NCBI RefSeq assembly: GCF_003966335.1
Contig: NZ_CP034549.1
Coordinates: 180,001 to 212,000 of the forward strand
Direction: 5' to 3'
From: Nonlabens ponticola
Lineage (GTDB): Bacteria > Bacteroidota > Bacteroidia > Flavobacteriales > Flavobacteriaceae
Length of the DNA stretch: 32,000 nt
Shown piece by piece: positions 1-22,241 of this stretch (position 1 is the stretch's first letter; the number at the start of each line of letters is the position of its first letter). The position numbers were made by a program, and so were the translations under genes. A model generated the notes under the pieces. The model searched no databases. It saw only the letters and a program-made list of their open reading frames with translations, and was not told where the DNA came from.

Positions 1-2088
1 TTGTTCATCTATGATCAAACACGTGGTGCATTCCTGTATGATTCTAAGGAGCGTATAGAACTATCTAATTCCTTAGAACAAATGCTTGAAGAGGATGTTC
101 TTAATAAGGTAGAATTTATTGATGATGATAGAATCGCTTTTGGAACTATTAAGAATGGTGTAATAATATATTCTATAGCGAGTCAAAATATTGAGACTAT
201 TAATAGAAAGTCGGGATTACGGAATAATACTGTATTGGATCTTACAGCCCACAATGGAAATTTATGGCTGGCCTTAGATAATGGTGTAAGTCGCATCGCA
301 GTAGATAGCGCTATTTCTTTTTATACTGATGACACTGGCACATTAGGGACTGTATATGATATTGAATTACTTAATGGACAACTTTATCTAGCCAGCAATA
401 CTGGTGTTTATACTTTCATTGATAACCAATTGACCCTTTTGGAAAATTCTGAAGGTCATTGTTGGGGCATCCATAAATCCAATAGTGAGCTATTCTTTGG
501 CCATAATAAAGGAGCACTGATTCTGGCAAATGGAAAGCTTGAATTAATAGAAGGTTCCTACAGCGGCGTCTACGATTACGTTCCTATCCCGAATTCTCAA
601 GACTTTCTATTATCGACCTATTCTGGAATAGGGTATCTATCTATCGATAACGGCAGCTATGAAGTAACAAAACTCGACGGGCTGGACGTGCCTATTGACA
701 ACATCATTTTTGAGAACGAAAAGCTCCTATGGGCGACAGATAATTTCAAAAATCTATTTAAAATAGAGTTTAACACCAACAATAAGACGCTTGAAAGTGT
801 AGTCTTGATGGAAAGCAAGGAGTTAGCAAAGGAGAAAATGGTTGATATCGTCAAAATTGATGATCTACCTTACTTTGTGATAGGTGGATCATGGTTTACC
901 TACTCGCATGGAAAAAGCAGCTTTCAACCTGCTGAAAAATTTGAAGGTAAATTACTGATTGGTCAAGATGATAGCAGTCTTTGGTTTATGAATGAAGATC
1001 GTTCTAGCATCGTCAAGATAGACCGGCAGTCAGGTGAAGTAACAACACTTTCTAATCAAGAATTTTTCTCAAAACTCGTAGACGGTTACTCAAAAGTTTT
1101 CGCGATTGACGAAAACCGCAGCAGCATCAACCTTAAAGACGGATTTGCAATTATTCACAATGATAAAAGCGGTATCAATGATTATGAAAGCATAATCATC
1201 AAGGAAATAACCGCTAGCGATAAGATAATAGAGCGATCTGAGCCGAATGACCTCATATTGAGTTATGAAGAAGCTAGATCTATAAACTTTAAAATTTATT
1301 CTCCTGGTAATTATGATCATAATTTCACATACCAGCTTGAAGGAGAAATGAGTCAATCTGATAAAATTATGGATGGTAGTTTCATGCTGCGCAATCTCAA
1401 AAGCGGCAATTATATTTTATCTATTGTCGATAGTGGGAACGACCAAATAAGAAAAGAACTGAGCATTGAGGTAATGGCGCCCTGGTATCTAAGTTGGTGG
1501 ATGAAGCTGGGTTATTTACTGTTACTTATAGCATTATTGTTCCTTGCAGGTAGATATCAAAAGATCAAAGCCAATAAAGCTCATAACAAGGCTCAAAAAG
1601 AATTACTACAACAAGCCAAGCAAAAGCTTGAAGCTGTGGAAAAAGAGAACCTAATTAAAGAAGTGGAGTCTCGACAAAAGGAATTGATTAACCGCACCGC
1701 GACGATTGTAAGAAAGAATGAGGCGATCATAACTCTAAGAAATGAACTTAGAAAACTTCAGGAAAGCTCGCCTAATAAGATCAGGACAGACAATATTTTA
1801 AAAAGAACTGGTGAACAGCTGGACAGTAAAAATGACTGGCATTTATTTGAGTCAAAATTCAATTCATTGAATGAGGACTTCTTTAATAATCTATCCAGAA
1901 AGTTTCCAAAATTGACCAGTAAAGATCAAAAGCTATGTGCCTATATCAAAATAGGTCTTACTTCTAAAGAAATTGCTCCGTTGTTGGGAATCACTAAAAG
2001 AAGTGTTGAACTACAACGTTATCGATTACGAAAAAAGCTAAATCTAGATACAGATATTACTTTTCCAGAATTTTTGTCCCAGTTATAA
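1..2088 (+). CDS. Transmembrane one-component sensor/regulator: periplasmic beta-propeller plus Y_Y_Y (triple-tyrosine) domain, one TM helix, coiled coil, C-terminal LuxR-type HTH; 5'-truncated by window edge
   Basis: ORF runs to nt 1 with no credible start. Y_Y_Y-like segment (NFKIYSPGNYDHNFTYQLEG...GNYILSIV). Hydrophobic helix WWMKLGYLLLLIALLFLAG, then a long K/E/Q-rich coiled coil. LuxR/GerE HTH (LTSKEIAPLLGITKRSVELQRYRLRKKL). Lies upstream of and co-directional with susC/susD. Confidence 0.8.
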   Translation: MFIYDQTRGAFLYDSKERIELSNSLEQMLEEDVLNKVEFIDDDRIAFGTIKNGVIIYSIASQNIETINRKSGLRNNTVLDLTAHNGNLWLALDNGVSRIAVDSAISFYTDDTGTLGTVYDIELLNGQLYLASNTGVYTFIDNQLTLLENSEGHCWGIHKSNSELFFGHNKGALILANGKLELIEGSYSGVYDYVPIPNSQDFLLSTYSGIGYLSIDNGSYEVTKLDGLDVPIDNIIFENEKLLWATDNFKNLFKIEFNTNNKTLESVVLMESKELAKEKMVDIVKIDDLPYFVIGGSWFTYSHGKSSFQPAEKFEGKLLIGQDDSSLWFMNEDRSSIVKIDRQSGEVTTLSNQEFFSKLVDGYSKVFAIDENRSSINLKDGFAIIHNDKSGINDYESIIIKEITASDKIIERSEPNDLILSYEEARSINFKIYSPGNYDHNFTYQLEGEMSQSDKIMDGSFMLRNLKSGNYILSIVDSGNDQIRKELSIEVMAPWYLSWWMKLGYLLLLIALLFLAGRYQKIKANKAHNKAQKELLQQAKQKLEAVEKENLIKEVESRQKELINRTATIVRKNEAIITLRNELRKLQESSPNKIRTDNILKRTGEQLDSKNDWHLFESKFNSLNEDFFNNLSRKFPKLTSKDQKLCAYIKIGLTSKEIAPLLGITKRSVELQRYRLRKKLNLDTDITFPEFLSQL

Positions 2089-2306: not shown

Positions 2307-5300
2307 ATGAGATTTCAGGTCAAATTAACTACCTCAATCCTTTTCTTTTTATTAACTCAGTTTGTTTTTGCACAAAAAACAATCACTGGAGTAGTAGTTG
2401 ATGAAAGTGATGTTCCAATTTTAGGTGCATCCATTTTCATTAAATCTAAAAATCTAGGGACGCAAACAGGCTTTGATGGCGATTTTTCTATAGAAGCTGA
2501 AATAGGTGATTTAGTTTCGGTCAGTTATATAGGGTTTGAAACTCAAGAATTTACAGTAGATAGTCGAGATGAATATCGGATAATTCTTCCAACTAGTATA
2601 AACTCTCTCGAAGAAATTGTAATTGTTGGATATGGTAAACAGAAGAAAGCTATTCTTACCAGCTCTGTCTCGATAGTAGATGGCGATGAAGTTGCAAAAG
2701 AACCGGTTCTTAATGTGACTCAAGCGCTTCAAGGAAAAGCTGCTGGTGTCAACATCATTGCATCTGATGCTCCAGGACAGGCCTCATCAGTAATTATACG
2801 TGGATTGGGAACTGTTCAAGGTGGTAGAGATCCACTTTATGTTGTTGATGGAGTATTGACGGATAACATCAATAATATCAATTCGGCGGACATAGAATCG
2901 ATCAACGTTTTGAAAGATGCCGCTTCACTCGCCATTTATGGTAATAGAGGTGCCAATGGTGTAATCATAGTTACCACCAAACAAGGAAGGAAAGGTGACA
3001 TGAAAGTAAGCTTTGATGCATACTCAGGCTTTAGAGATATTCTTACTAGGGTTGAGCTAGCCAACGCATCAGAATATGTCATTTATAGTAATGAGGCATT
3101 AAGACGCGATTATCTTACTGATAATGACCCTACAAATGATAATAGCACCGTCGGTTTTATTCCTACCGACCAGCAATTTGATACCGACTGGCTAGACGCC
3201 ATAACGCAAATTGGACTGGTCAACAATTTTAATCTTTCCGCTTCTGGTGGATCAGATATGATCACAGCTTTCTTCAGCGCTAGTTTTAACGATGAACGAG
3301 GTGTTTTGCTTAATGATGAGTTCAATCGATTAACCTTAAGAAGTAATGTAGATTATAAAATCTCTGAAAAACTGAGGTTTTCACATAATGTGAGCTCTCA
3401 ATTAGCAACCGGCACACCGCAAAATTATGCTTTGTTTACTTCGGCATATAAGCAAGCACCTATAATTCCGGTGCGTGATGAGAATGGCAATTACGGTTCT
3501 TCCATCAATATCAATAGCGTGGCAAATCCAGCGGTAGATGCGAGTAATGAATTTAAAGAGGACAAGAATAAGTTTTTCAAGATTCAAGGCGCCTTCAAGA
3601 TTGATTATGATGTTCTCGATGATTTGACTTTTACATCTAGATTTTCCATTGAGACAGAGTATGGTAGGTTTTATTCATTTAGGGACAGATTAGGTAACTT
3701 CCTTGCACAAAATCCATTCAATACACCAAGTAGTTTTGAAGGTGATGCTGAAAATCCAGCAAACACGAGACTGACAGTCACACACACAAATACTTATAGA
3801 TGGTTTCTTGATAATTACTTTACCTATGACAAAACATTCAATGATGTTCATGGTATCAATGCCACGCTAGGTATTACGTCAGAAGAAAGTGGCAGTGAAT
3901 TCTTATCTGCAACTAGAAATAATGTTCCCTTAGACACTAACTTAAATTTCAATCTAAATACAGGAGATGAAGACGAGACGCAACTTAATTCGGGTGCGCT
4001 TAGTGTTAGGGATCGATTGTATTCGTACATCGCTCGACTCAACTATGACTATGACAACAAGTATCTTTTTGGAGGTTCTTTCAGGAGAGATGGATCAAGC
4101 AAATTTCAAAAAGGCCAACAATTTGGAAATTTCTTTGCAGTCAGCGCAGGTTGGGTGATTACAGAAGAGAGTTTCATGGACGATAGTGTATTCGACGTAT
4201 TAAAGTTGAGAGCTAGTTATGGTGAATTGGGAAATCAAAATGTTCCGCTCAACGTTTTAAACGCAACGACTGGAGCAGGTGGTTTTTACGCCTTTGGACA
4301 GAACCAACTGCTACAGCAAGGAATTACCATTACAGGTACAATACAGGAAGATCTCACATGGGAGACTACTGAAGAGTACAATTTCGGAGTAGAATTTACA
4401 CTGCTAGATTACCGTCTTTCAGGTGAGCTTGATGTATATCAAAGACTCAACACTAATGCCATTTTACAAATAGAGCTGCCCGACATCATCGGGTTCGATC
4501 CTTTTAATGCTAGCGTAGGGCAAATTCAAAATCGCGGAATTGAGCTTGCGGTAAATTGGAACGATGACATCACAGATGATTTTAAATACTCAATAGGAAT
4601 CAATGCTTCCTACAATGAGAACGAAATTACCGAAGTAACAAATCCTTTTTTCTTGGAGCAATTAGGTGGTTTCATCAACAATGGACAGTACACAAAAAGG
4701 ATTGCGGTAGGCCAGCCGTTGGGTAGTTTCTATTTATATGATGTAGCAGGTATTGATGACAATGGCGACTTGGTTTACAAAGACTTAAACGAGGATGGTG
4801 TTATTGACGAGAGTGACAGAGCGTTTTTCGGGTCTTACCTACCAAAGTTTTTCGGCGGAGTGAATCTTGGTACTCAATACAAACAGTTTGATCTAACAGT
4901 TGACACTTATTTTAATGTAGGTAATAAGGTTTACAATGGTAAAAAGGCCCAACGCTTCGGTAATGAAAATATTGAAGCTGTAGATTTTAATAGTCGATAC
5001 ACTACTGGTCGACCTAGTAACACAACACCTAGGGCATTTAATAATGTTCCTCTCTCATCTACCTATTATTTGGAGGATGGTGATTTTCTACGAATTAACA
5101 ATATAACATTAGGCTATACTTTGCCATTAAAAGAAAACTCAATTTTTGATTCTTTCAGGGTTTATGCTACAGCAAAAAACCCATTTATCTTTCAAAAATT
5201 CTCAGGATTCACTCCTGAGCTTCCTGGAGCACCGCTAGGTAACGCCGGAATTGAGCTAGACGCATTTCCAACTCTTAGATCATTCTATATAGGCTTAAAT

Positions 5301-5312
5301 ACATCTTTTTAA
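2307..5312 (+). CDS. susC: SusC/RagA-family TonB-dependent outer-membrane transporter
   Basis: 1001 aa. Signal peptide, N-terminal carboxypeptidase-regulatory-like domain (ITGVVVDESDVPILGASIF...GDFSI), plug region (IVIVGYGKQKK...NVLKDAASLAIYGNRGANGVIIVTTKQG), long beta-barrel ending in a terminal Phe (LNTSF). Followed 12 bp later by susD. Confidence 0.93.
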   Translation: MRFQVKLTTSILFFLLTQFVFAQKTITGVVVDESDVPILGASIFIKSKNLGTQTGFDGDFSIEAEIGDLVSVSYIGFETQEFTVDSRDEYRIILPTSINSLEEIVIVGYGKQKKAILTSSVSIVDGDEVAKEPVLNVTQALQGKAAGVNIIASDAPGQASSVIIRGLGTVQGGRDPLYVVDGVLTDNINNINSADIESINVLKDAASLAIYGNRGANGVIIVTTKQGRKGDMKVSFDAYSGFRDILTRVELANASEYVIYSNEALRRDYLTDNDPTNDNSTVGFIPTDQQFDTDWLDAITQIGLVNNFNLSASGGSDMITAFFSASFNDERGVLLNDEFNRLTLRSNVDYKISEKLRFSHNVSSQLATGTPQNYALFTSAYKQAPIIPVRDENGNYGSSININSVANPAVDASNEFKEDKNKFFKIQGAFKIDYDVLDDLTFTSRFSIETEYGRFYSFRDRLGNFLAQNPFNTPSSFEGDAENPANTRLTVTHTNTYRWFLDNYFTYDKTFNDVHGINATLGITSEESGSEFLSATRNNVPLDTNLNFNLNTGDEDETQLNSGALSVRDRLYSYIARLNYDYDNKYLFGGSFRRDGSSKFQKGQQFGNFFAVSAGWVITEESFMDDSVFDVLKLRASYGELGNQNVPLNVLNATTGAGGFYAFGQNQLLQQGITITGTIQEDLTWETTEEYNFGVEFTLLDYRLSGELDVYQRLNTNAILQIELPDIIGFDPFNASVGQIQNRGIELAVNWNDDITDDFKYSIGINASYNENEITEVTNPFFLEQLGGFINNGQYTKRIAVGQPLGSFYLYDVAGIDDNGDLVYKDLNEDGVIDESDRAFFGSYLPKFFGGVNLGTQYKQFDLTVDTYFNVGNKVYNGKKAQRFGNENIEAVDFNSRYTTGRPSNTTPRAFNNVPLSSTYYLEDGDFLRINNITLGYTLPLKENSIFDSFRVYATAKNPFIFQKFSGFTPELPGAPLGNAGIELDAFPTLRSFYIGLNTSF

Positions 5313-5324
5313 AATAGTCATGCT

Positions 5325-6764
5325 ATGAAAACAACGTTTAAAAAATTAAAAAGGGTCTTTTTATCATTATTAATATGCACCTTCTTACTTCTTTCCTGTT
5401 CTGAAGATTTTATTGACGTCGACTCAAATCAGGAAACCGAAGAAGCTCTAACCGCTGAAAGAGCTCCAGAACTGGTCAATGCAGTTTACAACAGCTTTCT
5501 TCGATGGGAAGTGAGCTCATTTGCATGGACTGGTATATCAAGTATTGCATCGGATGATGCTGATAAAGGCAGCATACCAAGTGATACTGGTGCAGATAAA
5601 AGTTTATTGGATGCGCTTGAAATAACACCTACAATTATATCAGTCGCTGAGGTATGGAGTGGTCACTATGATGGTATTCAAAGAGCAAATCAAGCTATCT
5701 CTAGAATCTCGCAATTTGAAATGGATGAAGATCTACAAAACAGGTTGTTAGGTGAGGCTAGATTCCTAAGAGCGCTCCTGTATTTCCGATTGGTTCAGGT
5801 TTATGGTGGCGTTCCTTTAATTACTGATATCACATCGGTTGAGGATATCAATTCAGATGTATTATCAAGAAAAACCAAAGAAGAATGCTATGAGTTCATA
5901 GAAAGTGATTTGATGTTTGCAATTGATGCGCTTCCTTTAAAAAGTGAATATCCTCCATCAGAGCTCGGTAGGGCGACCAAAGGTGCTGCCCAAACGCTGC
6001 TCGCGAAAGTAAGTATGTATCAATCCAAATGGGAAGAGGTAATTACACTGACAGATGACGTAATCAACTCTTCAGAATATGCTCTTACTCCAAACTATGA
6101 AGATATATGGAAAGATAGTTTTGAAAACAATGAAGAATCCATATTTGAAATTCAGGCTAGAGGTAATGAACCTGCTGCTGGAATCGATAAGTATAGCACT
6201 ATCCAGGGCGTTCGTGGTGAAAGTGGTTGGGGTTGGGGCTTCAATACACCATCGCAAGATCTTGCGGACGCCTATGAGGATGATGATCTTAGACAAGATG
6301 CAACATTCATACTAGCTGGAGAAACATTGTTTGACGGTAGAGAAATAAGTCCTAACGTACCTAACCCTAGGTACAATCAAAAAGCGTACTCCAGTATTCT
6401 AACTGAATCAGAACAGACTGGTAAAAACGTAAGGATACTCAGGTATGCAGAAGTACTTCTGATGAATGCTGAGGCAAAGTCTATAATAGGCGGTGATGTA
6501 GCAACACCTCTGAATCTAGTAAGACAGCGTGCTGGTTTAGATGACTCTGATGATCTAAGCACCGAGGCTGTATGGAAAGAGAGACGCCTAGAGCTAGCAT
6601 TTGAACATGATAGATATTTTGACCTAGTAAGACAAGGTCGCGCAGAAGAAGTTTTGAATTCAAAAGGAATTCGATTCATAGCTGGAAAACACGAGGTATT
6701 TCCTATACCGCAAGAGCAAATTGATCTAAGTGGTGGAGCGTTGGTTCAGAATCCTAATTACTAA
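5325..6764 (+). CDS. susD: SusD/RagB-family outer-membrane lipoprotein (glycan binding)
   Basis: 479 aa. Lipoprotein signal (LLLSCSEDF). SusD-like motifs (ARFLRALLYFRLVQVYGGVPL, RYAEVLLMNAEA, ERRLELAFEHDRYFDLVR, FPIPQ near the C-terminus). Immediately downstream of susC. Confidence 0.9.
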   Translation: MKTTFKKLKRVFLSLLICTFLLLSCSEDFIDVDSNQETEEALTAERAPELVNAVYNSFLRWEVSSFAWTGISSIASDDADKGSIPSDTGADKSLLDALEITPTIISVAEVWSGHYDGIQRANQAISRISQFEMDEDLQNRLLGEARFLRALLYFRLVQVYGGVPLITDITSVEDINSDVLSRKTKEECYEFIESDLMFAIDALPLKSEYPPSELGRATKGAAQTLLAKVSMYQSKWEEVITLTDDVINSSEYALTPNYEDIWKDSFENNEESIFEIQARGNEPAAGIDKYSTIQGVRGESGWGWGFNTPSQDLADAYEDDDLRQDATFILAGETLFDGREISPNVPNPRYNQKAYSSILTESEQTGKNVRILRYAEVLLMNAEAKSIIGGDVATPLNLVRQRAGLDDSDDLSTEAVWKERRLELAFEHDRYFDLVRQGRAEEVLNSKGIRFIAGKHEVFPIPQEQIDLSGGALVQNPNY

Positions 6765-6774
6765 GAAAGAGAAA

Positions 6775-8142
6775 ATGAGAGAGTACTCAAAAATTATAAA
6801 GACAATGAAATTCACAACGCTTGCAGTAGTCATTTTAGTTGTAACAAATTGTACCAATGAAGACTTTACTGCGCCGCCACCGGATGTTGGATTTGTAGAA
6901 GAACCTGCGGTAGAAAGAATATCGACTGAAGAATTACTGGATATTACCCAAGAAAGAACATTCAATTACTTCTGGGATTTTGCTGAAGAAAACAGTGGAC
7001 TTGCACGAGAAACATCAAGAGATGATGCAATAGGTGGCGATGGAAACCGAGTGGTCACCACTGGTGGTTCTGGATTTGGTATTGCAGCCTTTCCTGCAGC
7101 CGTAGAACGTGGATGGATCACTAGAGCTGAAGCCATTGAAAGGCTAGACAAAATACTCAACTTCTTAGAAAGCTGTGAAACTTATCATGGAGCATTCTCG
7201 CATTGGTATTTAGGCGATACGGGCGTCACGAGAGACTTCAGTGAATTGGACGACGGTGCAGACATCGTGGAGACAGCGTTTCTACTTCAAGGTTTGCTGA
7301 TTAATAAACAATACTTTGATTCGGATGATGATGCTGAAGCCGACATCAGAAGCAGAATTTCAACCATTTATGATAATGTAGAATGGAGTTGGTTTGAAAG
7401 AGGTCAAAATTCAATGACCTGGCACTGGTCACCTGAAAACGAATTTGCTATTGACTTACAAATTCAAGGTTGGAATGAATCGTTGATGGTTTATGTTCTA
7501 GCGGCTGGATCCAATACGTTCCCTATAACCAAAGAGACTTATGACAATGGCTGGTCTAGAAATGGACAAATGGTTAATGGAAATACTTATGTAGGAACTA
7601 GACTGCCTTTAGGTGTAGACTTTGGAGGTCCACTTTTCTATGCACATTATTCTTTCATAGGTCTGGATCCCAGAAATCTGTCGGATCAGTACGCTAATTA
7701 TATGGAGCAAAACACAGCTCACTCACTCATAAATTACGAATACTGCCGCAACAATCCCAATGAATATTTAGGATATGGTGGTGATAGTTGGGGCTTGACT
7801 GCCAGCAATGATTTTAACGGTTATGCAGTTCATGATCCATTGAACGACATAGGTGTCATAACGCCTACTGCTGCACTTTCTTCTTTCCCATACACACCTG
7901 AGGAATCACAAAAAGCGTTGGAATATTTCTATTACAATCTCAACGATAGACTTTGGGGAGAATACGGTTTTTACGATGCTTTTAGCGAAGAGTTCAATTG
8001 GTATGATGACAGTTACCTAGCAATTGATCAAGGTCCAATCGTAGGTATGATTGAGAATTACAGAACTCAACTATTGTGGAATTTATTCATGCAAGACGAG
8101 CAAGTACAGAATGGACTTGATCTTTTAGGATTCACTTATTAA
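6775..8142 (+). CDS. Glucoamylase-like (alpha/alpha)6 family lipoprotein (PF10091 / GH144-like, candidate endo-beta-glucanase)
   Basis: ORF opens at GTG 6730 inside susD. ATG 6775 (or ATG 6805, MKFTTLAVVILVVTNC lipobox) is the more plausible start. Motifs recalled from the 'putative glucoamylase'/GH144 family: TFNYFWDFAEENSGLARE, GGSGFGIAAFPAAVERGWITRAEA, HGAFSHWY. Family assignment is from memory and not searched. Confidence 0.65.
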   Translation: MREYSKIIKTMKFTTLAVVILVVTNCTNEDFTAPPPDVGFVEEPAVERISTEELLDITQERTFNYFWDFAEENSGLARETSRDDAIGGDGNRVVTTGGSGFGIAAFPAAVERGWITRAEAIERLDKILNFLESCETYHGAFSHWYLGDTGVTRDFSELDDGADIVETAFLLQGLLINKQYFDSDDDAEADIRSRISTIYDNVEWSWFERGQNSMTWHWSPENEFAIDLQIQGWNESLMVYVLAAGSNTFPITKETYDNGWSRNGQMVNGNTYVGTRLPLGVDFGGPLFYAHYSFIGLDPRNLSDQYANYMEQNTAHSLINYEYCRNNPNEYLGYGGDSWGLTASNDFNGYAVHDPLNDIGVITPTAALSSFPYTPEESQKALEYFYYNLNDRLWGEYGFYDAFSEEFNWYDDSYLAIDQGPIVGMIENYRTQLLWNLFMQDEQVQNGLDLLGFTY

Positions 8143-10419: not shown

Positions 10420-13239
10420 ATGAAACAATTTTTACTTTTTGTTTTAATTCTTTCTGTGTTCACGGGCGCAGCGCAATGCGTTGATCCAGACATCACAGAT
10501 TTTGAATGTGAGAATCCATCACATCCTATCACTGGAGCATTGACCAGCGTGCTCAATCCGTTTCCGCACGATATTAATAGAAGTGAAAACGTAGGTAAGT
10601 ATATAGATAACGGTCAGGCAGGATTTGACGCATTGGTCGTTGATTATGGGTCACCCATTGACTTGTCGGTAAATCCAGTTTTGAAACTTAAATTCTATTC
10701 CACCAATTCAGTTCAGATTTTAGCGAAACTAGAAGGTGGCACGCAACAAGAGCTATTTTCAGACTTCAGTCAGGTAAACACGTGGCAAGAATTTTCTTTT
10801 GATTTTAGCGCCTCGCAAGGAAACGGTAACACACGAGTGGTATTTTTTGTCAATCCTGGAGTTGAAAACGGATCACCTGCAGACGTTTATTATTTGGATG
10901 ACATTCGATTTGACAGCACCGTACTCACGCCTTGTGAAGAACCTTTTATAACCAACTTTGAATGCGCACCATTCTCCAACACTATAAATGGAGCATTGGT
11001 AACTGTAGGCAATTCAGTTTCTGGTGGAACGAATACCAGCCCTAACATAGGTCAATATACTGATGACGGTACACAAGGATTTGATGCTCTTGTGATTGAT
11101 TATGGAGCTCCTATCGATTTATCTGTGAATAGCATTTTTAAGCTCAAATTCTATTCGCCAAGTTCCGTACAAATTTTAGCCAAACTAGAAGGCGGCACGG
11201 TACAGGAAATATTCTCAGACTTCAGTCAAGTAAACACTTGGGAAGAATTCACTTTTGATTTTAGCGCATCTGTTGGTCAAGGTAACACTCGTTTAGTATT
11301 GTTCTTCAACCCATTTGTTGAATCAGGAACACCCAATGATATTTACTTTATCGATGATCTTCAATTTGGAACCCTTGAAAGAACAGTTTATAGCTATAAG
11401 AACGATACCACAGGCTGGACGCCCAACATTCCTAACGATGTAATTGATCCATCAAGTGCCATAGACAACATTGTCATTCAGGCTGGTGCAACGCAAACAA
11501 CAGGTGATTTACTCGCTGCAAATGTGACTGTAGCGTCAGGTGCAATGTTAGATGCTCAAGGGTTGAATGTAACTTCTACTTTAGATAGTCAAGGTGTGAC
11601 TAATGTTTTTGGAACGCTAACACCCAACGCTTCACAGATTACTTCAAATGGTACGCTGACCTTAAAAAGTGATGAGAATGGAACTGCAACGGTAGCTGAT
11701 GCTACCAATGCAACTTTTAACGGCGCGATAGCAGTTGAGCGATACATTCCAGCTTCCAACAGATCTTACAGATTGGTTTCTACCGCTGTTGAAAACGCTG
11801 GGCCTATCAGTTCAAATTGGCAATTGAATACGCACATTACAGGAAATGGTGGTGCTAGCAATGGTTTTGATGAAACAGGAACTAACAATCCATCCATGTT
11901 TACCGTCAACGAGCAAGCTGCACCAGCAAACTATGAAGCTATCACTACCACGGCGACAAATCTAGAACATGGGACAGGATACCTACTGTTTGTACGTGGC
12001 GATCGTTCTGTAGATCTTACAGATAATGAGGCAGCGGCTACAGCAACTACCTTATCAAGTGCAGGAACGTTATTTAGAGGAAATCTAGTACTAGGAAACA
12101 CACAGCTTAACACAGGCGATTTTGAGGCAGGTGGCAATGGATCATCCTTGATTGCCAACCCTTACCAGGCACCAGTCAATATGGAGCAGGTTTTAAATAC
12201 AGCTACAGAAATCAATCAGGAATTCATTCATGTTTATGATCCTACCTTGGGAGATCGCGGTGCTTTTGTAACCGTAGGTTTTGGCGCGGCTACAGATGGT
12301 ACAGATGACATCACCAACTTTTCTCTAGGAGCAAATGCTGGTAATGACGCATCGACTACACAGGCTTCAAGATTCCTACAGCCAGGTAGCGCTGTTTTCA
12401 TCAATACGCTAGATCCTGGAACTGATGGAACTGCAAATCCATCGCTCACATTCAGCGAGGTAGATAAGGCGATCAACAGCCCAGTTTCCATTCCTTTTGA
12501 GACGCCAGATGCTGTAGATGTCAATTCAAGTAATGCATTAGTGAGCATCAATCTCTTTGACACAGCAGCTTTTGCAAACAACGAGAGTCCTAGAGATGCA
12601 CTTGTTGTGAGATTTTCAGACCAGTATAGCAATGCCCTTGAGACAACAGATGCATTGAAAGCCACCAATCTTGATGAAAACATGGCCAGTATGGCAGATG
12701 GCCAACTCTTTAGTATTCAAAGTCGAGCGTTGCCTGTCGATGAGGAAATCATTGATTTGTCCATGACCAATTATACGATGACTGACTATACCATGAAAAT
12801 CAGCATCAATGGACTGGATGATGTCAATGCCTATCTGGTTGACAACTTTACGAACACCTCAACGCTTCTTGAGAACGACTCGGTTACCCTTGTAGAGTTC
12901 TCTGTGGACTCTTCAAATGACTCTAGTAGCAGTGAGGATCGTTTTGATTTAGCTTTCGCGAAAAGCACACTATCAAACACAGATGATCAAGCGACCAGCT
13001 TTAAACTATTCCCTAATCCTGTTAACAATGGGGTTGTTAATGTTGAACTGAGCCAGGTTACTGCTGGTCCAGCGCAGGTACACATTTACAACTCGTTAGG
13101 TCAAAATGTACAAGAAATCAAGCTAGCCGAAATAGCTGGTGTACAAACTCTAGATGTATCTAACCTAAGTCAAGGAATATACATCATGGAGATTATCCAA
13201 GACGGTACATCGACCTCGCAAAAAGTGATCATTCAATAA
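10420..13239 (+). CDS. T9SS-secreted protein: two N-terminal copies of an unassigned ~146-aa Cys-capped module, a ~540-aa Thr/Asn/Ala-rich region and a C-terminal T9SS sorting domain
   Basis: Signal peptide. Modules at nt 10477-10914 and 10933-11370. T9SS CTD at nt 13000-13236 (FKLFPNPVNNGVVNVEL...GIYIMEIIQDGTSTSQKVIIQ). Starts 6 bp after the GH3 stop. Confidence 0.8.
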   Translation: MKQFLLFVLILSVFTGAAQCVDPDITDFECENPSHPITGALTSVLNPFPHDINRSENVGKYIDNGQAGFDALVVDYGSPIDLSVNPVLKLKFYSTNSVQILAKLEGGTQQELFSDFSQVNTWQEFSFDFSASQGNGNTRVVFFVNPGVENGSPADVYYLDDIRFDSTVLTPCEEPFITNFECAPFSNTINGALVTVGNSVSGGTNTSPNIGQYTDDGTQGFDALVIDYGAPIDLSVNSIFKLKFYSPSSVQILAKLEGGTVQEIFSDFSQVNTWEEFTFDFSASVGQGNTRLVLFFNPFVESGTPNDIYFIDDLQFGTLERTVYSYKNDTTGWTPNIPNDVIDPSSAIDNIVIQAGATQTTGDLLAANVTVASGAMLDAQGLNVTSTLDSQGVTNVFGTLTPNASQITSNGTLTLKSDENGTATVADATNATFNGAIAVERYIPASNRSYRLVSTAVENAGPISSNWQLNTHITGNGGASNGFDETGTNNPSMFTVNEQAAPANYEAITTTATNLEHGTGYLLFVRGDRSVDLTDNEAAATATTLSSAGTLFRGNLVLGNTQLNTGDFEAGGNGSSLIANPYQAPVNMEQVLNTATEINQEFIHVYDPTLGDRGAFVTVGFGAATDGTDDITNFSLGANAGNDASTTQASRFLQPGSAVFINTLDPGTDGTANPSLTFSEVDKAINSPVSIPFETPDAVDVNSSNALVSINLFDTAAFANNESPRDALVVRFSDQYSNALETTDALKATNLDENMASMADGQLFSIQSRALPVDEEIIDLSMTNYTMTDYTMKISINGLDDVNAYLVDNFTNTSTLLENDSVTLVEFSVDSSNDSSSSEDRFDLAFAKSTLSNTDDQATSFKLFPNPVNNGVVNVELSQVTAGPAQVHIYNSLGQNVQEIKLAEIAGVQTLDVSNLSQGIYIMEIIQDGTSTSQKVIIQ
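12952..12966. repeat. Imperfect copy of the iterated palindrome (GCTTTCGCGAAAAGC, one extra A)
   Basis: Read directly. Lies inside CDS 10420-13239 and encodes AFAKS. Confidence 0.5.
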
Positions 13240-13256
13240 TCAAAAAACTGAACAAC

Positions 13257-13469
13257 ATGAATAGCAATAAATATTTACAACGATTTGTACTGGTGGCGGT
13301 AATCCTGTTCACCATGACCTTGATTGATGGTGATCTATATGCTCAAATAGGCGTACCAGAAGATGGTGATGTTGAAGACGTGGAAATGGCACCAATAGAT
13401 AGTCTGATATGGATTGCCATGGGCGCTGGAGCATTCATAGGCTACAAAAAACTCAAAAAAGATAACTGA
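13257..13469 (+). CDS. Hypothetical 70-aa mini-protein: N-terminal signal/TM, acidic linker, C-terminal TM helix plus basic tail
   Basis: ORF only. FVLVAVILFTMTLI...LYAQ, then VPEDGDVEDVEMAPID, then SLIWIAMGAGAFIGY-KKLKKDN. Fills the gap between two module genes (17 bp and 62 bp spacers). Coding status is unproven. Confidence 0.45.
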   Translation: MNSNKYLQRFVLVAVILFTMTLIDGDLYAQIGVPEDGDVEDVEMAPIDSLIWIAMGAGAFIGYKKLKKDN

Positions 13470-13531
13470 TTGCTAGCAGTATACAACTCAAGCAACCCCA
13501 AAACACAAACGATTACCTAAATCTACATATC

Positions 13532-14746
13532 ATGAAAAAAATTCTACTCTTATCCTTATGTGCAATATCCTATTTAGGGTATGGACAATGTAATGAACCA
13601 CTTATCACAGACTTTGAATGTGGTGAACCATCTAATCCTATCACGGGTGCGCTGGTTACCGTGGCAAATCCATTTCCTGGTGGCATCAACACCAGTGAAA
13701 ACGTGGGTGAATACACAGATGATGGAACACAAGGTTTTGACAACTTTAGTATTGAATACGGCGAGCCTATTGATCTATCGACAAACAGTGTCTTAACGCT
13801 TAAGCTCTACTCGCCTACTTCGGTTCAAATACTGGCAAAGCTTGAAGGTGGTGGTGGACCAGAAATCTTTTCTGACTTCAGTCAAGTCAACGAGTGGCAG
13901 GAATTCTCTTTTGACTTCAGCGCTTTTGCAGATGGCGGCAACACAAGAGTTGTGGTTTTTGTAAACCCAGCAGTTTCCAGTGGAACAACAACTGACATCT
14001 ATTATGTGGATGATATAGGTTTTGAAGAACCAGAAGAAGAAGCAGTGCCATGTGAAGGTCCTGTGATTACAGATTTTGAATGCTCTGCACCATCGCAGCC
14101 TATTACAGGTGCAATTGTGACTGTTGAGAATCCATTCCAAGAAGGAATCAACACCAGTGAAAACGTAGGACGATACACTGATGATGGAACCAATGGTTTT
14201 GACGCACTAGTCGTAGATTATGGGACAGAAATTGACTTATCTACAAATCCTATTTTCAGTGTGAAGCTTTACTCAACCAGTTCCGTTCAAATTCTTGCAA
14301 AACTTGAAGGTGGAACAGCGCAGGAAATCTACTCTGATTTCAGTGAGGTAAACCAGTGGCAGGAGTTCACATTTGACTTCTCAGATTCACAAGGTAATGG
14401 AAATACACGCCTAGCTTTATTTGTCAATCCAGCGGTAACTGATGGTACAACTACAGATGTTTACTTTCTAGACGATTTGAGTTTTGAGAGCGCTACTGCT
14501 TCCATCGATGAAAATTTCTTGAACAGCATCAAACTATATCCTAACCCAGCTGCTGACATCCTGAATATTTCTTCAGTTGACACTATAGAAAGCTATCAGA
14601 TACTAGACGTTTCAGGTAAGACCATCATGAGCAAAAATGAGAATATCTCTGCTGCGATTGATGTGAATAATCTGACTACAGGTATCTATTTTATCAGACT
14701 TAATTCATCGTCTTCTAAAGCGGTAATCAAGTTTGTAAAACAATAA
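13532..14746 (+). CDS. T9SS-secreted protein made of two copies of the Cys-capped module plus a T9SS C-terminal sorting domain
   Basis: Signal peptide. Modules at nt 13589-14026 and 14051-14488. CTD at about nt 14519-14743 (IKLYPNPAADILNISS...GIYFIRLNSSSSKAVIKFVKQ). Confidence 0.85.
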   Translation: MKKILLLSLCAISYLGYGQCNEPLITDFECGEPSNPITGALVTVANPFPGGINTSENVGEYTDDGTQGFDNFSIEYGEPIDLSTNSVLTLKLYSPTSVQILAKLEGGGGPEIFSDFSQVNEWQEFSFDFSAFADGGNTRVVVFVNPAVSSGTTTDIYYVDDIGFEEPEEEAVPCEGPVITDFECSAPSQPITGAIVTVENPFQEGINTSENVGRYTDDGTNGFDALVVDYGTEIDLSTNPIFSVKLYSTSSVQILAKLEGGTAQEIYSDFSEVNQWQEFTFDFSDSQGNGNTRLALFVNPAVTDGTTTDVYFLDDLSFESATASIDENFLNSIKLYPNPAADILNISSVDTIESYQILDVSGKTIMSKNENISAAIDVNNLTTGIYFIRLNSSSSKAVIKFVKQ

Positions 14747-14764
14747 TGATTAAATAAATTGAAG

Positions 14765-16792
14765 ATGAAAACTCCGTTATTCAAATATTCTCTGCTGGTT
14801 CTAGTAGTAACCTTACTGCATTCTTGTGAACGGGAATTAGAGAGATATGAATTGTTGACTTTTGAAAGATGTGAAACTGAAGATGTTGTTCCAGACCCGT
14901 TTGTGGTAACAGATTTTGAGTGTCAATCAAATGTCAATATCAATGGAGTTGAAGTCATCAGAAATCCCAGTGAGACTGGCGATAACCTATCAAGATTTGT
15001 AGGAGAGTATACCGATGGTGCCAGCGCCACAGATGCACTGGTTATCGAGTTTGACGATGACCTGGATTTATCTACCAACGCTACACTCTCGTTTGCCGTA
15101 AAAACAGATGTTACAGGAACGCTAGAAATTCAATTATTGGGCGATCCAGATGGAACGGTTTCTTATGAAGTCATCATCGCAGGTAACGAGCGCTGGATTG
15201 AGTATGAAGTAGACCTAGTTGATGATCGTGATAAAAGCTTTGATCAAATCAATTTTGTCTTCAATAGCGGTATTGAAAACAACGGTAATGATATTTACTT
15301 GATCGATAATATCAAATTTGAACTTACTATCGATCCTTGCGAGGATGTGGTGGCAGATCTATCCATCATCAGCGATTTTGAATGTCAACAGAATTACTTT
15401 TTGGGCGCAGACCCAGAACAAACCAGTGTTGAACCAGTCGACAATCCCTTTATTGGTGGTATCAATCAAAGCAGTGATGTAGGTAGATACGTGGACAACG
15501 GTACCGAGGCTTTTGACAACTTGCAAATCAATTTTGACGACGCGATTGATCTATCAGAAAAACCATTGTTTACCATGAAGGTTTATGCGCCTACCCCAGG
15601 AATACTTACAGTAAAACTGGAAGGCGGTTCAGAAGCTGTGGAGCAATCAGCAACGGTTACTACCGCAAATCAATGGGTAGAATACTCATTCAATTTTGCA
15701 GATGCCGTCGACAATGACAACGACACCATGATCATCTTCTTCAATGCAGGCAGCATGGATGGAAATGAGGCTGAAGTCTACTTCATCGACGACCTACAAT
15801 TTGAAGAATTTGTAGATCCATGTGAGAGCGTTGACGAGGATCTATCCATCATTTCAGATTTTGAATGCCAGCAGAATTATACCTTGGGTGTGAATCCTGC
15901 CTTGATCAGCACCATTGAAAACTTTGATCCTGACGACGTGAACATGAGTGATCTTATAGGTCAATATTCAGACGATGGCACACAAGGCTTTGATAATTTA
16001 CTCATTGACTTTGAGGACGACATCGACCTGTCAGAGCGTCCCGTGTTTTCCATTAAGGTTTATTCTACACAACAGGCGCCACTCGTGGCCAAAGTAGAAG
16101 GTGGCGACACACCTCTAGAAATTGCCAGAGAAATTACGGCTGTGAACGAATGGGTAGAATACACCTTTGACTTCTCGCCTGTGGCAGATCAAGGTAATGA
16201 CCAGCTGATCCTTTTCTTCAACTTCGGTCAGGAAGATGGTACCACCACAGACCTATATTATATTGATGATCTGCGATTTGTGGAAAATCCATGTGGAGTC
16301 ATTGATGAAGACTGTGAAAATGTCACACCAGACTTGACGATCATCAGCGATTTCAATTGCCAGCAAAACTATCATCTAGGTGCCGTACCTACTGTCGAGG
16401 ATGCGCCAGTCGTGCCTAATCCTGACGTGAGCTGTGAAAACAGAAGTGCCAATGTAGGCCGATACACTGATAATGGTACAGATCCATTTGACAATCTATT
16501 TATAGATCTTGAAGGACCGTTTGATCTTACCAACAACAGCACGCTACGATTAAAGATATTGTCTGATAATCCTGCGCCAGTTCCTGTTCTTGCAAAGCTA
16601 GAAGGTGGCACGCCGCTAGAAGTTTTTGCAGACGTTACGGTCACTGGCGAGTGGACAGAGATCAGCTTTGACTTCAGCGCTGCAATAGGTGCTGGAAACG
16701 ACGCACTTGTCCTATTTGTTAACGCTGGTGAGACCAACACGTCAACCGCAGACATCTACTACCTGGACGACATCAGGTTTGAAGCACCATAA
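14765..16792 (+). CDS. Lipoprotein made of four diverged copies of the Cys-capped module (candidate surface glycan-binding protein)
   Basis: ATG at 14765 (the track starts at TTG 14759). Lipobox LLHSC. Modules at about nt 14870-15322, 15338-15805, 15821-16282 and 16292-16783. No T9SS CTD; the protein ends in YYLDDIRFEAP. Confidence 0.85.
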   Translation: MKTPLFKYSLLVLVVTLLHSCERELERYELLTFERCETEDVVPDPFVVTDFECQSNVNINGVEVIRNPSETGDNLSRFVGEYTDGASATDALVIEFDDDLDLSTNATLSFAVKTDVTGTLEIQLLGDPDGTVSYEVIIAGNERWIEYEVDLVDDRDKSFDQINFVFNSGIENNGNDIYLIDNIKFELTIDPCEDVVADLSIISDFECQQNYFLGADPEQTSVEPVDNPFIGGINQSSDVGRYVDNGTEAFDNLQINFDDAIDLSEKPLFTMKVYAPTPGILTVKLEGGSEAVEQSATVTTANQWVEYSFNFADAVDNDNDTMIIFFNAGSMDGNEAEVYFIDDLQFEEFVDPCESVDEDLSIISDFECQQNYTLGVNPALISTIENFDPDDVNMSDLIGQYSDDGTQGFDNLLIDFEDDIDLSERPVFSIKVYSTQQAPLVAKVEGGDTPLEIAREITAVNEWVEYTFDFSPVADQGNDQLILFFNFGQEDGTTTDLYYIDDLRFVENPCGVIDEDCENVTPDLTIISDFNCQQNYHLGAVPTVEDAPVVPNPDVSCENRSANVGRYTDNGTDPFDNLFIDLEGPFDLTNNSTLRLKILSDNPAPVPVLAKLEGGTPLEVFADVTVTGEWTEISFDFSAAIGAGNDALVLFVNAGETNTSTADIYYLDDIRFEAP

Positions 16793-16800
16793 ATCAATGA

Positions 16801-16837
16801 AAAGTCGCCTAGCAATGCTCTAGGCGACTTTTTTTAT
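16801..16837 (+). terminator. Rho-independent terminator closing the susC-to-16792 operon
   Basis: AAAGTCGCCTAG-caatgct-CTAGGCGACTTT followed by a T-run, 9 bp after the stop codon. Confidence 0.85.
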
Positions 16838-16871
16838 CCAGTCATTAAATTGAAGGAAGGTGGTTATGATT

Positions 16872-16889
16872 ACGCTTTCGCGAAAGCGT
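16872..16889. repeat. Iterated palindrome, 18-bp perfect copy (ACGCTTTCGCGAAAGCGT)
   Basis: Read directly. Intergenic, between the PUL terminator and the GH13 start. Confidence 0.9.
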
Positions 16890-16958
16890 GATTACCACAT
16901 ACCACCTTACATATTGATTAATTTAGTATCTTTTAATTCAATACCAAATAACATTAAA

Positions 16959-18756: not shown

Positions 18757-18838
18757 TGCGGATGACAGGAATCGAACCTGCACACCTTGCGGCACTAGAT
18801 CCTAAGTCTAGCGTGTCTACCAGTTCCACCACATCCGC
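18757..18838 (-). tRNA. tRNA-Leu (anticodon UAG), type II with a long variable arm; CCA not encoded
   Basis: Reverse complement folds by hand. Acceptor GCGGATG/CATCCGC. D arm GTG..AACTGGTAGA..CAC. Anticodon stem CTAGA/TCTAG with loop CTTAGGA. Variable arm TGCCGCAAGGTGT. T arm GCAGG-TTCGATT-CCTGT. Discriminator A. Confidence 0.9.
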
Positions 18839-21747: not shown

Positions 21748-21796
21748 TTGGAACTCGGAACTTGGAGCTTGGAGCTTGGAGCTTGGAGCTTGGAAT
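21748..21796 (+). repeat. Heptanucleotide tandem repeat: (TTGGAGC)x4 perfect, flanked by diverged units TTGGAAC, TCGGAAC and TTGGAAT
   Basis: Read directly. Ends about 15 bp upstream of the first BlaI-type operator. Confidence 0.9.
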
Positions 21797-21811
21797 TTGA
21801 AAATTCCACCT

Positions 21812-21825
21812 TCTACACTTGTAGA
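21812..21825. promoter_or_regulatory. BlaI/MecI-type operator 1 (TCTACA-ct-TGTAGA palindrome)
   Basis: TACA/TGTA inverted-repeat dyad, typical of BlaI/MecI/CopY-family operators, upstream of the repressor gene. Confidence 0.6.
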
Positions 21826-21838
21826 ATTGCATTTTTAT

Positions 21839-21852
21839 TCTACATTTGTAGA
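21839..21852. promoter_or_regulatory. BlaI/MecI-type operator 2 (TCTACA-tt-TGTAGA), overlapping a TAnnTTTG -7 box (TACATTTG, 21842-21849)
   Basis: Second copy of the dyad, 27 bp after the first and 22 bp before the ATG at 21874. The overlap with a Bacteroidota -7 consensus suggests autorepression. Confidence 0.6.
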
Positions 21853-21873
21853 TGTGGTTCTAAATACATAGAA

Positions 21874-22239: not shown

Positions 22240-22241
22240 CA

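Follow-up and report, generated by a model that had tools for sequence, protein, structure and literature searches.

Eight tandem modules of a predicted beta-1,2-glucan PUL in Nonlabens ponticola are members of the 8qx6/X584 family

Three consecutive genes of Nonlabens ponticola carry eight copies of one module directly behind the enzymes of a PUL, and they raise the question whether these copies found a family of their own and which glycan they hold. The window analysed here, a stretch of 32,000 nucleotides (contig NZ_CP034549.1, positions 180,001 to 212,000), had been described in an earlier note that left the module unassigned and proposed it as a new family. Sequence-profile, profile-profile and structure comparisons instead all lead to PDB 8qx6, titled 'Novel laminarin-binding CBM X584', a confident match to an established CBM family that takes away the proposed novelty. 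The eight repeats are new members of this known family, also called CBMxx, which we take to be CAZy CBM102. Overall, we give a probability of about 0.75 to the reading that they form a compact, capped subtype of the 8qx6 family, sit in a predicted beta-1,2-glucan PUL and take part in surface glucan capture. As it stands, the finding is mainly corrective: the family dates from 2023-24 and is not new here.

The locus and its three module-bearing proteins

Based on its GH144, its GH3, the SusCD pair and a BguR-type regulator, the locus is predicted to be a beta-1,2-glucan PUL. Its features, apart from the single modules, are the following.

1..2088, + strand: regulator, 5'-truncated; large N-terminal (periplasmic) part, TM segment, LuxR-type HTH (GerE domain)
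2307..5312, + strand: SusC-like TonB-dependent transporter
5325..6764, + strand: SusD-like lipoprotein
6775..8142, + strand: GH144 endo-beta-1,2-glucanase homolog; PF10091, 243 bits; lipobox VVTNC, then acidic residues
8149..10413, + strand: GH3 beta-glucosidase with an ordinary signal peptide (periplasmic)
10420..13239, + strand: gene 1 (AZQ42843.1), 939 aa; signal peptide, two capped modules, middle region, C-terminal sorting domain (CTD)
11371..13005, + strand: middle region of gene 1, about 545 aa, all-beta, without Pfam or PDB match
13006..13236, + strand: T9SS type A CTD of gene 1; PF18962 at aa 863-938, 55.2 bits
13257..13469, + strand: 70-aa ORF between genes 1 and 2; hydrophobic N-terminal segment, acidic stretch, PID-CTERM-like tail
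13532..14746, + strand: gene 2 (AZQ42845.1), 404 aa; signal peptide, two capped modules, T9SS CTD
14765..16792, + strand: gene 3 (AZQ42846.1), lipoprotein of 675 aa; four capped modules, no CTD
16800..16838, + strand: G+C-rich hairpin followed by seven T, directly 3' of the gene 3 stop

The GH144 matches 5gzh, the endo-beta-1,2-glucanase of C. pinensis, at E 2e-132. The GH3 matches PDB 5xxl (E 5e-212) and Lin1840 (4zoa; E 2e-173), both presumably enzymes acting on sophoro-oligosaccharides. Judged from the sequence, the architecture of the regulator fragment, with its TM segment at aa 497-517, is BguR-like. The enzyme set equals that of GH144 Sus-type beta-1,2-glucan loci (Chitinophaga pinensis SGL, 5gzh; marine Flavobacteriia), and the order regulator, SusC, SusD, GH144, GH3 is common to the window and to GH144/BguR loci. 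This type of PUL, with BguR homologs located at GH144 PULs, is reported in the BguR preprint (bioRxiv 10.64898/2026.01.10.698779). The hairpin with its T run likely marks the end of the PUL transcription unit. A GH13 gene was considered as a further member and rejected: it is absent from 34 of 34 related loci, and the strong hairpin and T run separate it from gene 3.

Genes 1 to 3 thus sit in a susCD/GH144/GH3 PUL, in the slot that the earlier note had reserved for glycan-binding proteins, and the split targeting it had described is also borne out. In genes 1 and 2 the modules start at Cys20, right behind a signal peptide whose end reads ..AAQ in gene 1 and ..GYGQ in gene 2, and both proteins finish in a type A CTD recognized by PF18962 and TIGR04183. 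The latter scores 48.5 bits in gene 1; the domain of gene 2 (aa 335-401) reaches 55.6 bits with PF18962 and 50.0 bits with TIGR04183. With this CTD and, judging by their sequence, an N-terminal Sec signal peptide, both are predicted T9SS type A cargo. Gene 3 has the lipobox LLHSC followed by the acidic motif ERELE, both kept in its orthologs. A lipoprotein signal, a susCD PUL and CBM modules as its sole domains make it a candidate surface glycan-binding protein (SGBP). NCBI and UniProt name it 'carbohydrate binding domain-containing / CBM-cenC'; genes 1 and 2 are publicly annotated as 'T9SS type A sorting domain-containing protein', which could be raised to multi-CBM glycan-binding proteins.

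Apart from their modules, genes 2 and 3 encode only a targeting signal. Gene 1 additionally holds its large middle region, for which a Pfam search gave no match and a Foldseek search of the model against the PDB gave nothing below E 0.1 (AF2 model: pLDDT 78.7, pTM 0.79). It has 46 homologs, almost all with PF18962, and the heads N-terminal to it vary among them, including PF13385, PF03382 and PF11589.

Family membership and the capped subtype

All eight modules translate in frame at the positions given below, as the earlier note had it. Its 'two-thirds identical' for the modules of genes 1 and 2 agrees with the computed pairwise protein identity of 64-67% among M1-M4, and the modules of gene 3 are more diverged, as it had also seen: M5-M8 are 28-49% identical among themselves and to M1-M4, with M5 at 28-36% to the other copies. 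Even the most distant pair, M1 and M5, is recovered by BLASTP at E 2e-16, so the repetition lies well past chance. Nineteen alignment columns are invariant in all eight copies (F9, C11, N27, N34, S36, G40, Y42, D44, G46, D51, D62, L63, G87, W103, E105, N126, Y138, D141 and F145). Each copy starts with the Cys pair that had been noted before, an initial Cys with (D/N)F(E/N)C 10-22 residues on, and this invariant N-terminal pair probably forms a disulfide staple. M8 contains two additional Cys, located in the linker and in the NPDVSCENRS loop respectively; both are also present in the orthologs P0026 and P0032.

The suggestion of the earlier note that genes 1 and 2 go back to a recent duplication is rejected. 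M1-M4 are equidistant in protein, their DNA is only 65-74% identical, and gene 1 has an ortholog of its own in another Nonlabens genome; the duplication is therefore not recent. The modules of gene 3 are positional orthologs across genera.

A profile built from the eight modules finds 8qx6 at E 4.3e-12, and one from 22 sequences finds it at E 5.1e-13. The next PDB sequence match of the latter is 1gui, the CBM4 of a Thermotoga laminarinase, at E 9e-4. As a stand-in for an official CAZy/dbCAN model we used an 8qx6-like HMM made from 89 modules that are at least 38% identical to the 8qx6 fragment and were drawn from proteins retrieved with the window profile. Its scores for the single modules are listed here; lengths are those of the translation.

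10477..10914, + strand: M1, 146 aa, Cys-capped, X584/CBMxx-type; 106 bits
10933..11370, + strand: M2, 146 aa; 102 bits
13589..14026, + strand: M3, 146 aa; 104.7 bits
14051..14488, + strand: M4, 146 aa, the structure-modelled copy; 107 bits
14870..15322, + strand: M5, 151 aa, the most diverged; 44.5 bits
15338..15805, + strand: M6, 156 aa; 119 bits (CBM_4_9: 18 bits)
15821..16282, + strand: M7, 154 aa; 98.5 bits
16292..16783, + strand: M8, 164 aa; 108.8 bits

Seven of the eight modules thus score 98-119 bits (E 1e-26 to 8e-33, Z = 1e6) and cover roughly 90% of the model, about 147 of its 164 positions; only M5 stays at E 7e-10. The criterion for CBMxx assignment in Zuhlke et al. was E ≤ 1e-15 with a coverage of at least 35% (bioRxiv 10.1101/2023.09.07.556657). 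When 83 capped and 89 uncapped modules were compared with hhalign, the two groups aligned with 99.9% probability and E 2.7e-37. A profile made from the window modules alone retrieved P0143 at E 7e-49, a protein that pairs one capped module with an 8qx6-like one. The 8qx6-like module shares 76% identity with the 8qx6 fragment and served as its proxy in the sequence comparison; the 99-aa fragment itself gave no candidates in an index of 5.8 billion proteins. Capped and uncapped modules occur together in 40 proteins.

Structure leads to the same family. The AF2 model of M4, the only copy modelled, has a pLDDT of 92.3 and is all-beta with ten strands, and its best Foldseek match in the PDB is 8qx6_A/B (E 3e-9, TM 0.75-0.77, 24% identity), so that the modelled fold is superposable on the 8qx6 crystal structure. 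The beta-sandwich CBM-type fold anticipated in the earlier note is supported by this model and by its Foldseek matches, which are CBMs. Second-best by TM is the N-terminal module of the Saccharophagus degradans GH50 exo-beta-agarase 4bq2 (TM 0.70-0.73), a structural neighbour of CBMxx according to Zuhlke et al. (bioRxiv 10.1101/2023.09.07.556657); it differs in being attached to an agarase and is only 11-12% identical. CBM4 structures appear among the matches with TM of only about 0.5-0.54.

Could the modules nonetheless stand apart from all named families, as first proposed? Their low identity, 27% to the 8qx6-like module of P0143 and the 24% of the Foldseek alignment, would allow it, and so would Pfam: single modules score 13.8-22.3 bits with CBM_4_9 (PF02018), below its gathering score of 25.9 bits, gene 2 reaches 15.2 bits and gene 1 gives no CBM_4_9 match, leaving both genes without any Pfam CBM call. 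Gene 3 as a whole protein, however, obtains 53.2 bits over three stretches, above the threshold and in line with its public annotation. Together with the three kinds of comparison that tie the modules to 8qx6/X584 and the 40 proteins mixing capped and uncapped copies, this makes a separate family hardly credible. The 8qx6 family is itself remotely related to CBM4 and CBM_4_9. The window modules share a beta-sandwich superfamily with 1gui (CBM4-2 of Thermotoga maritima laminarinase 16A), but singly they remain sub-threshold for CBM_4_9, and the TM values for CBM4 lie well below the 0.75 for 8qx6.

Within the 8qx6 family the window modules are, by their sequences, a compact subtype in which the Cys pair is invariant. 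Like 8qx6/CBMxx they are arranged in tandem on non-catalytic proteins encoded in PULs of marine Bacteroidota, among them lipoprotein SGBPs with four copies, and they share the N, K, W and DD positions. Positions kept in capped and uncapped groups alike are F9, N27, N34, G46, D62, K72, W103, F108, D141 and D142, and nine are kept in the capped group only (C1, C11, Y42, D44, D51, L63, N126, Y138 and F145). The window modules are shorter than the 8qx6 type (146 vs 165 aa), lacking a loop of about 16 residues, present in the 8qx6-like module of P0143, and an insertion of 3-4 residues. Unlike the founder they also occur on T9SS-sorted proteins, they are not accompanied by N-terminal Ig/PKD modules, and their setting is a GH144/GH3 PUL rather than a GH16/GH17/GH30 laminarin PUL. 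The Cys...DFEC cap is not mentioned in the CBMxx preprint (bioRxiv 10.1101/2023.09.07.556657). A simpler marker for GH144-linked modules, the pattern 'GxYTDDGTxxFD', was rejected, as only 44 of the 80 capped modules from GH144 loci matched it, along with nine uncapped ones.

The wider family comprises 2526 clusters. Copies per protein are commonly 3-8 and reach 16, so the 'unusually heavy investment' seen in the three proteins of the window was overstated; up to eight repeats per protein were described for CBMxx by Zuhlke et al. (bioRxiv 10.1101/2023.09.07.556657).

Ligand and proposed role

The co-occurrence of module genes with GH144 and GH3 that the earlier note had brought up was found in each of the 19 related flavobacterial loci whose flank was long enough. 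The capped modules do not lie beside laminarinases there, and SusC/D was also present in 17-18 of these loci. Peptide patterns from M1-M4 were used for this survey and recovered mostly orthologous PULs, so that the count reflects the conservation of one PUL type and not 19 independent associations. The pair of T9SS protein and lipoprotein is a conserved layout of this GH144 PUL type, and in two distant Bacteroidales loci (L025, L028) module proteins also follow a GH144. P0054, the single cluster representative on which the GH144-module fusion rests, joins a catalytic domain of family GH144 (239 bits with PF10091) to four modules, of which two are capped; its C-terminus is weakly CTD-like, at 23.9 bits against a cut-off of 27. 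The four GH16-fused proteins contain 32 modules, none of which is capped. Both uncapped-only loci checked (L022, L023) carry GH16, and L022 additionally has a GH3, a weak GH17 match and an MFS transporter. The GH144/GH3 loci, the GH144 fusion and the uncapped state of the GH16 fusions suggest beta-1,2-glucan rather than laminarin as the likely ligand, an assignment from genomic context to which we give even odds or a shade better. The Cys cap is not confined to GH144 contexts, as the capped module of P0143 stands beside an 8qx6-like one.

[quoted passage not shown] The window modules might likewise bind laminarin or other beta-1,3-glucans, with the PUL serving mixed beta-glucans or laminarin-like substrates and its GH144 incidental. 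This would agree with the ten positions kept in both groups, with the laminarinase CBM4 as next sequence match, with the combination of both module types in P0143, and with GH3 being a frequent PUL partner of CBMxx (bioRxiv 10.1101/2023.09.07.556657). However, the window PUL contains no GH16, GH17 or GH30, GH144 is present in all 19 of the related loci with sufficient flank, and the fusion to GH144 includes capped modules while those to GH16 have uncapped ones only. The nine capped-only positions and the missing loop also speak against it, as do the BguR homologs, which form separate clades for laminarin and for beta-1,2-glucan (bioRxiv 10.64898/2026.01.10.698779). We consider laminarin binding unlikely, if worth keeping in mind. 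Far less probable still is that the repeats act mainly as structural spacers or adhesin-type modules that bind protein or cell surface and lift other parts off the membrane. The recurrence of the large gene 1 region in T9SS proteins with unrelated heads and the elongated shape of multi-CBM proteins stressed by Zuhlke et al. (bioRxiv 10.1101/2023.09.07.556657) would fit such a role, but genes 2 and 3 have no other parts than modules and a targeting signal, the position in the PUL is strictly conserved, conserved polar and aromatic positions are shared with a ligand-bound CBM, and in P0054 the module is attached to a glycoside hydrolase, as is typical of CBMs.

If the modules do capture beta-1,2-glucan, the proteins of the locus may divide the work as follows. 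The GH144 would act as a surface lipoprotein and the GH3 in the periplasm. Gene 3, as an outer-membrane lipoprotein SGBP, would display its four modules beside SusCD. Genes 1 and 2, exported via T9SS with two modules each, would either stay on the cell surface or be released. The three proteins could then capture the glucan, or oligosaccharides released by the GH144, and keep them at the surface for import. More tentatively, and at somewhat less than even odds, the capped subgroup of GH144 PULs is a specificity subfamily for beta-1,2-glucan or sophoro-oligosaccharides, deployed as a conserved pair of T9SS binder and lipoprotein SGBP.

Beta-1,2-glucans are known as cyclic and osmoregulated periplasmic glucans of Proteobacteria, and enzymes degrading them have been described. 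Our literature search found no CBM described for this glucan, so the modules, if the assignment is true, would provide the first one as far as that search reached. Neither the accessible part of the BguR preprint (bioRxiv 10.64898/2026.01.10.698779) nor the other literature searched yielded a description of the CBM proteins of GH144 PULs. The capped modules in the GH144 PULs of many marine Flavobacteriaceae offer a candidate set for a beta-1,2-glucan CBM. Set beside the laminarin-binding modules, they form a natural pair for a change of linkage specificity within one fold, and the pairing of T9SS binder and lipoprotein binder bears on the division of glycan capture in flavobacterial PULs between T9SS proteins, attached or released, and lipoproteins of the Sus type.

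The small ORF that separates gene 1 from gene 2 has a tail of APID, a TM segment and KKLKK. It scores 17.1 bits with NF046080 PID_CTERM, under the cut-off of 26, and is kept at the same position in locus L001 (43% identity, E 3e-16).

Anatomy and targeting of the repeats

Three genes on the forward strand of the window carry eight repeat modules (M1–M8):

10420–13239 (+), gene 1 (AZQ42843.1), modules M1 and M2
13532–14746 (+), gene 2 (AZQ42845.1), modules M3 and M4
14765–16792 (+), gene 3 (AZQ42846.1), modules M5–M8

These open reading frames are present as the earlier note had described them, and all eight modules it delimited are in frame, with translated lengths of 146–164 aa. M1–M4 share 64–67% mutual identity, and M5–M8 are 28–49% identical among themselves and to M1–M4; the weakest pair, M1/M5, still reaches a BLASTP E value of 2e-16. 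Nineteen columns are invariant over the eight modules, including C11 (the second cap cysteine), W103 and the terminal Y..D...F. The proposed Cys cap is found in every copy as an initial Cys followed 10–22 residues on by (D/N)F(E/N)C, and its two cysteines probably form a disulfide. The last module of the gene 3 lipoprotein, M8 (16292–16783), contains two extra cysteines, one seven residues ahead of the cap Cys and one in place of the G-I-N motif (NPDVSCENRS). Because both are also kept in the orthologs P0026 and P0032, found in a representative search with the module profile, they suggest a second disulfide particular to the C-terminal module. Across genera the gene 3 modules are positional orthologs (m1 to m1 through m4 to m4), and the protein is therefore old.

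Genes 1 and 2 end in T9SS type A sorting domains, as had been read from the sequence (PF18962, 55.2 and 55.6 bits; TIGR04183, 48.5 and 50.0 bits), and their signal peptides both finish with Q19, immediately ahead of Cys20. Gene 3 has the expected lipobox, LLHSC, followed by acidic ERELE, and no CTD was seen in the domain search. Its orthologs repeat the lipobox and the acidic N-terminus, a pattern that is compatible with surface exposure according to Bacteroidota lipoprotein export signals.

Relationship to the X584/CBMxx family

The proposal that the repeats form an unassigned, candidate new family does not hold, as profile, profile–profile and structure matches link them to PDB entry 8qx6. 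This entry is the one strong PDB match of the eight-module profile (E 4.3e-12), and a 22-sequence profile recovers it at E 5.1e-13 together with 1gui, the CBM4 of Thermotoga laminarinase 16A (E 9e-4). Pfam CBM_4_9 matches the whole of gene 3 in three stretches (53.2 bits, threshold 25.9); single modules score 13.8–22.3 bits, under that threshold, and genes 1 and 2 also fail it. In public annotation gene 3 is 'carbohydrate binding domain-containing / CBM-cenC', and the names of genes 1 and 2 refer solely to the T9SS domain. A confident AlphaFold2 model of M4 (pLDDT 92.3, pTM 0.87) is built of ten beta strands and its Foldseek neighbours are CBM structures, in agreement with the beta-sandwich CBM-type fold suggested earlier. 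The best PDB matches of the model are chains A and B of 8qx6 (E 3e-9, TM 0.75–0.77), with CBM61, CBM11, CBM8 and CBM4 structures lower down; the N-terminal module of the GH50 agarase 4bq2 gives a TM of 0.70–0.73.

In this context, Zuhlke et al. described a new laminarin-binding family, 'CBMxx', with four repeats in the SGBP of a C. forsetii laminarin PUL, crystallised it with laminaritriose, named 4BQ2 as the sole remote structural neighbour and found the family to be widespread among marine Bacteroidota, a single protein having as many as eight repeats (bioRxiv 10.1101/2023.09.07.556657). From its title ('Novel laminarin-binding CBM X584'), molecule name and release date (2024-09-18), we infer that 8qx6 is the structure from that work.

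With the eight-module profile as query, an exhaustive HMMER search returned 2526 cluster representatives with E <= 1e-3; of these, 1179 have E <= 1e-10 and 307 have E <= 1e-30. One of the hits, P0143 (E 7e-49), has a module that shares 76% identity with the 8qx6 fragment. A reciprocal HMM, built from 89 uncapped modules that are each at least 38% identical to this fragment and were drawn from proteins retrieved by the window profile itself, gives M1–M4 and M6–M8 98–119 bits, with ~90% of the model covered; M5 reaches 44.5 bits. Comparing the profile of 83 capped modules with that of the 89 uncapped ones yields 99.9% probability (E 2.7e-37, 144 columns). In a set of 174 proteins with 686 modules, 167 modules have the cap; both kinds, capped and uncapped, occur together in 40 proteins, among them P0143, whose first module is capped. 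Because of these HMM, profile–profile and mixed-protein results, the capped modules are, as judged from sequence, a subtype within the X584/CBMxx family, which we take to be CAZy CBM102, and not a separate family. The window repeats are real and, by family, glycan-binding modules of the PUL; they are new members of a recent, very large family. The suggestion of an unusually heavy investment is overstated: eight modules per PUL rank high for a locus of this type, yet such numbers are ordinary for the family, in which the HMMER search found up to 16 copies per protein.

Ten positions (F9, N27, N34, G46, D62, K72, W103, F108, D141, D142) are conserved in both capped and uncapped groups, and nine (C1, C11, Y42, D44, D51, L63, N126, Y138, F145) solely in the capped, GH144-linked group. 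Two insertions of the 8qx6-like module are missing from the window modules: one of ~16 residues that separates the WxExxFxF strand from the next strand, and one of 3–4 residues after LE(G/T)G. The preprint reports a deep cleft between two long loops in 8qx6 and a shallow one in a repeat without one loop; it does not refer to cysteines, disulfides, T9SS or GH144 (bioRxiv 10.1101/2023.09.07.556657). Since a loop is also absent here, a more open binding site in the window modules is plausible.

The PUL type and its likely ligand

Five genes precede genes 1–3:

1–2088 (+), regulator, 5'-truncated by the window edge, with one TM segment (fragment aa 497–517) and then a LuxR-type HTH
upstream of genes 1–3, SusC and SusD
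upstream, GH144 homolog (PF10091, 243 bits; C. pinensis endo-beta-1,2-glucanase 5gzh, E 2e-132) with a lipoprotein signal
upstream, GH3 with an ordinary signal peptide, closest to the metagenomic GH3 3u48, with 5xxl and Lin1840 also close

Presumably 5xxl is BT_3567 and Lin1840 the Listeria enzyme, both active on sophoro-oligosaccharides. The regulator agrees with the membrane-spanning one-component BguR architecture; a 2026 preprint places BguR-type membrane-spanning regulators at laminarin PULs and GH144 beta-1,2-glucan PULs of marine Flavobacteriia (bioRxiv 10.64898/2026.01.10.698779).

The co-occurrence survey proposed earlier scanned one genome per GTDB species and returned 34 loci, 21 with a module at least 47% identical to the query and 19 of these with enough flank. 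GH144 and GH3 homologs adjoin the module genes in all 19, which shows conservation of one PUL type and not independent associations because the search patterns were derived from M1–M4. Among the 19, 17 loci have SusC and 18 have SusD, and a T9SS-type protein with one or two modules is followed by a lipoprotein with three or four in 16 of the 21. The PUL type spans MAGs and at least eight named genera (Nonlabens, Sungkyunkwania, Tamlana, Algibacter, Aquimarina, Aurantibacter, Formosa, Polaribacter).

The remaining interest lies in a likely shift of the ligand to beta-1,2-glucan in this Cys-capped, loop-trimmed subgroup. The chief alternative is laminarin binding, as in the founding member. Both loci checked with solely uncapped modules (L022 and L023) contain GH16; L022 adds GH3, an MFS transporter and a weak match to GH17, which makes a laminarin-type set. 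In the four GH16-fused proteins from the same set as P0054, none of the 32 modules is capped. P0054 itself (1286 aa) is a direct enzyme–CBM fusion for a beta-1,2-glucanase homolog: its GH144 catalytic domain (PF10091, 239 bits) shares 47% identity with the enzyme of the window and precedes four X584-type modules, of which two are capped; the C-terminus is weakly CTD-like (PF18962, 23.9 bits, under the cut-off of 27). In two Bacteroidales MAGs, uncapped X584-type proteins (L025 9218–10669, L028 9863–11449; modules 29–36% identical to the query) come after a GH144 homolog and SusC/D, so the link between the CBM family and GH144 PULs extends beyond Flavobacteriaceae and capped modules. These four loci, and the fusion set against the GH16-fused proteins, are more independent support than the survey count of 19/19. 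The literature searched describes no CBM for beta-1,2-glucan.

Taking beta-1,2-glucan as the ligand, we propose a mechanism that builds on the observed module anatomy, family, fold, targeting signals and conserved gene order, and in which ligand, disulfide and T9SS cargo location are predictions. The lipoprotein GH144 would cleave beta-1,2-glucan at the surface, and the four-module lipoprotein of gene 3 would keep polymer or oligosaccharides close to SusCD. The two-module T9SS exports of genes 1 and 2, surface-attached or released, could extend the capture. In the periplasm GH3 would complete the breakdown, and the products would be sensed by the BguR-like regulator.

Locus boundary and neighbouring features

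Two features follow gene 3:

16800–16838, G+C-rich hairpin with a run of seven T, 3' of the gene 3 stop
16860–18341 (+), likely start 16959, GH13 alpha-amylase with a lipoprotein signal and a weak SusG_C match

Because of the hairpin and T-run after the stop, and because a homolog of the neighbouring GH13 occurs in 0 of the 34 related loci surveyed, the PUL most likely ends with gene 3. Lying beyond this strong hairpin, the GH13 probably does not belong to the beta-glucan PUL.

Within gene 1, residues 318–862 (window 11371–13005, +) form an all-beta region of ~545 aa that has no match in a Pfam search and nothing below E 0.1 in Foldseek against the PDB; its AF2 model is reasonable (pLDDT 78.7, pTM 0.79). 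Together with the T9SS CTD, the region recurs in 46 database proteins behind unrelated N-terminal heads (Laminin_G_3, DUF285, DUF3244), and it seems to be a stalk or anchor cassette of T9SS cargo, as yet uncharacterised. Outside the window, proteins of the gene 1 type, with this long middle region, were found only at locus L001, from a Nonlabens MAG, and among Nonlabens-like database entries.

Genes 1 and 2 are separated by 290 bp, in which lies an ORF of 70 aa (13257–13469, +) with an N-terminal hydrophobic segment, an acidic stretch, and APID followed by a TM helix and KKLKK. It resembles a PID-CTERM sorting signal (NF046080, 17.1 bits, under the cut-off of 26) and has a counterpart at the same position in L001 (9684–9893; 43% identity, E 3e-16). 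The accession numbering skips AZQ42844 between genes 1 and 2, which suggests that this ORF is annotated under that number.

Further along, a BlaI-type repressor (PF03965) and a 925-aa BlaR1/M56-domain protein (21748–25019, +) form a sensor–repressor pair unconnected with the PUL, and a tRNA gene lies at 18757–18838 (-).
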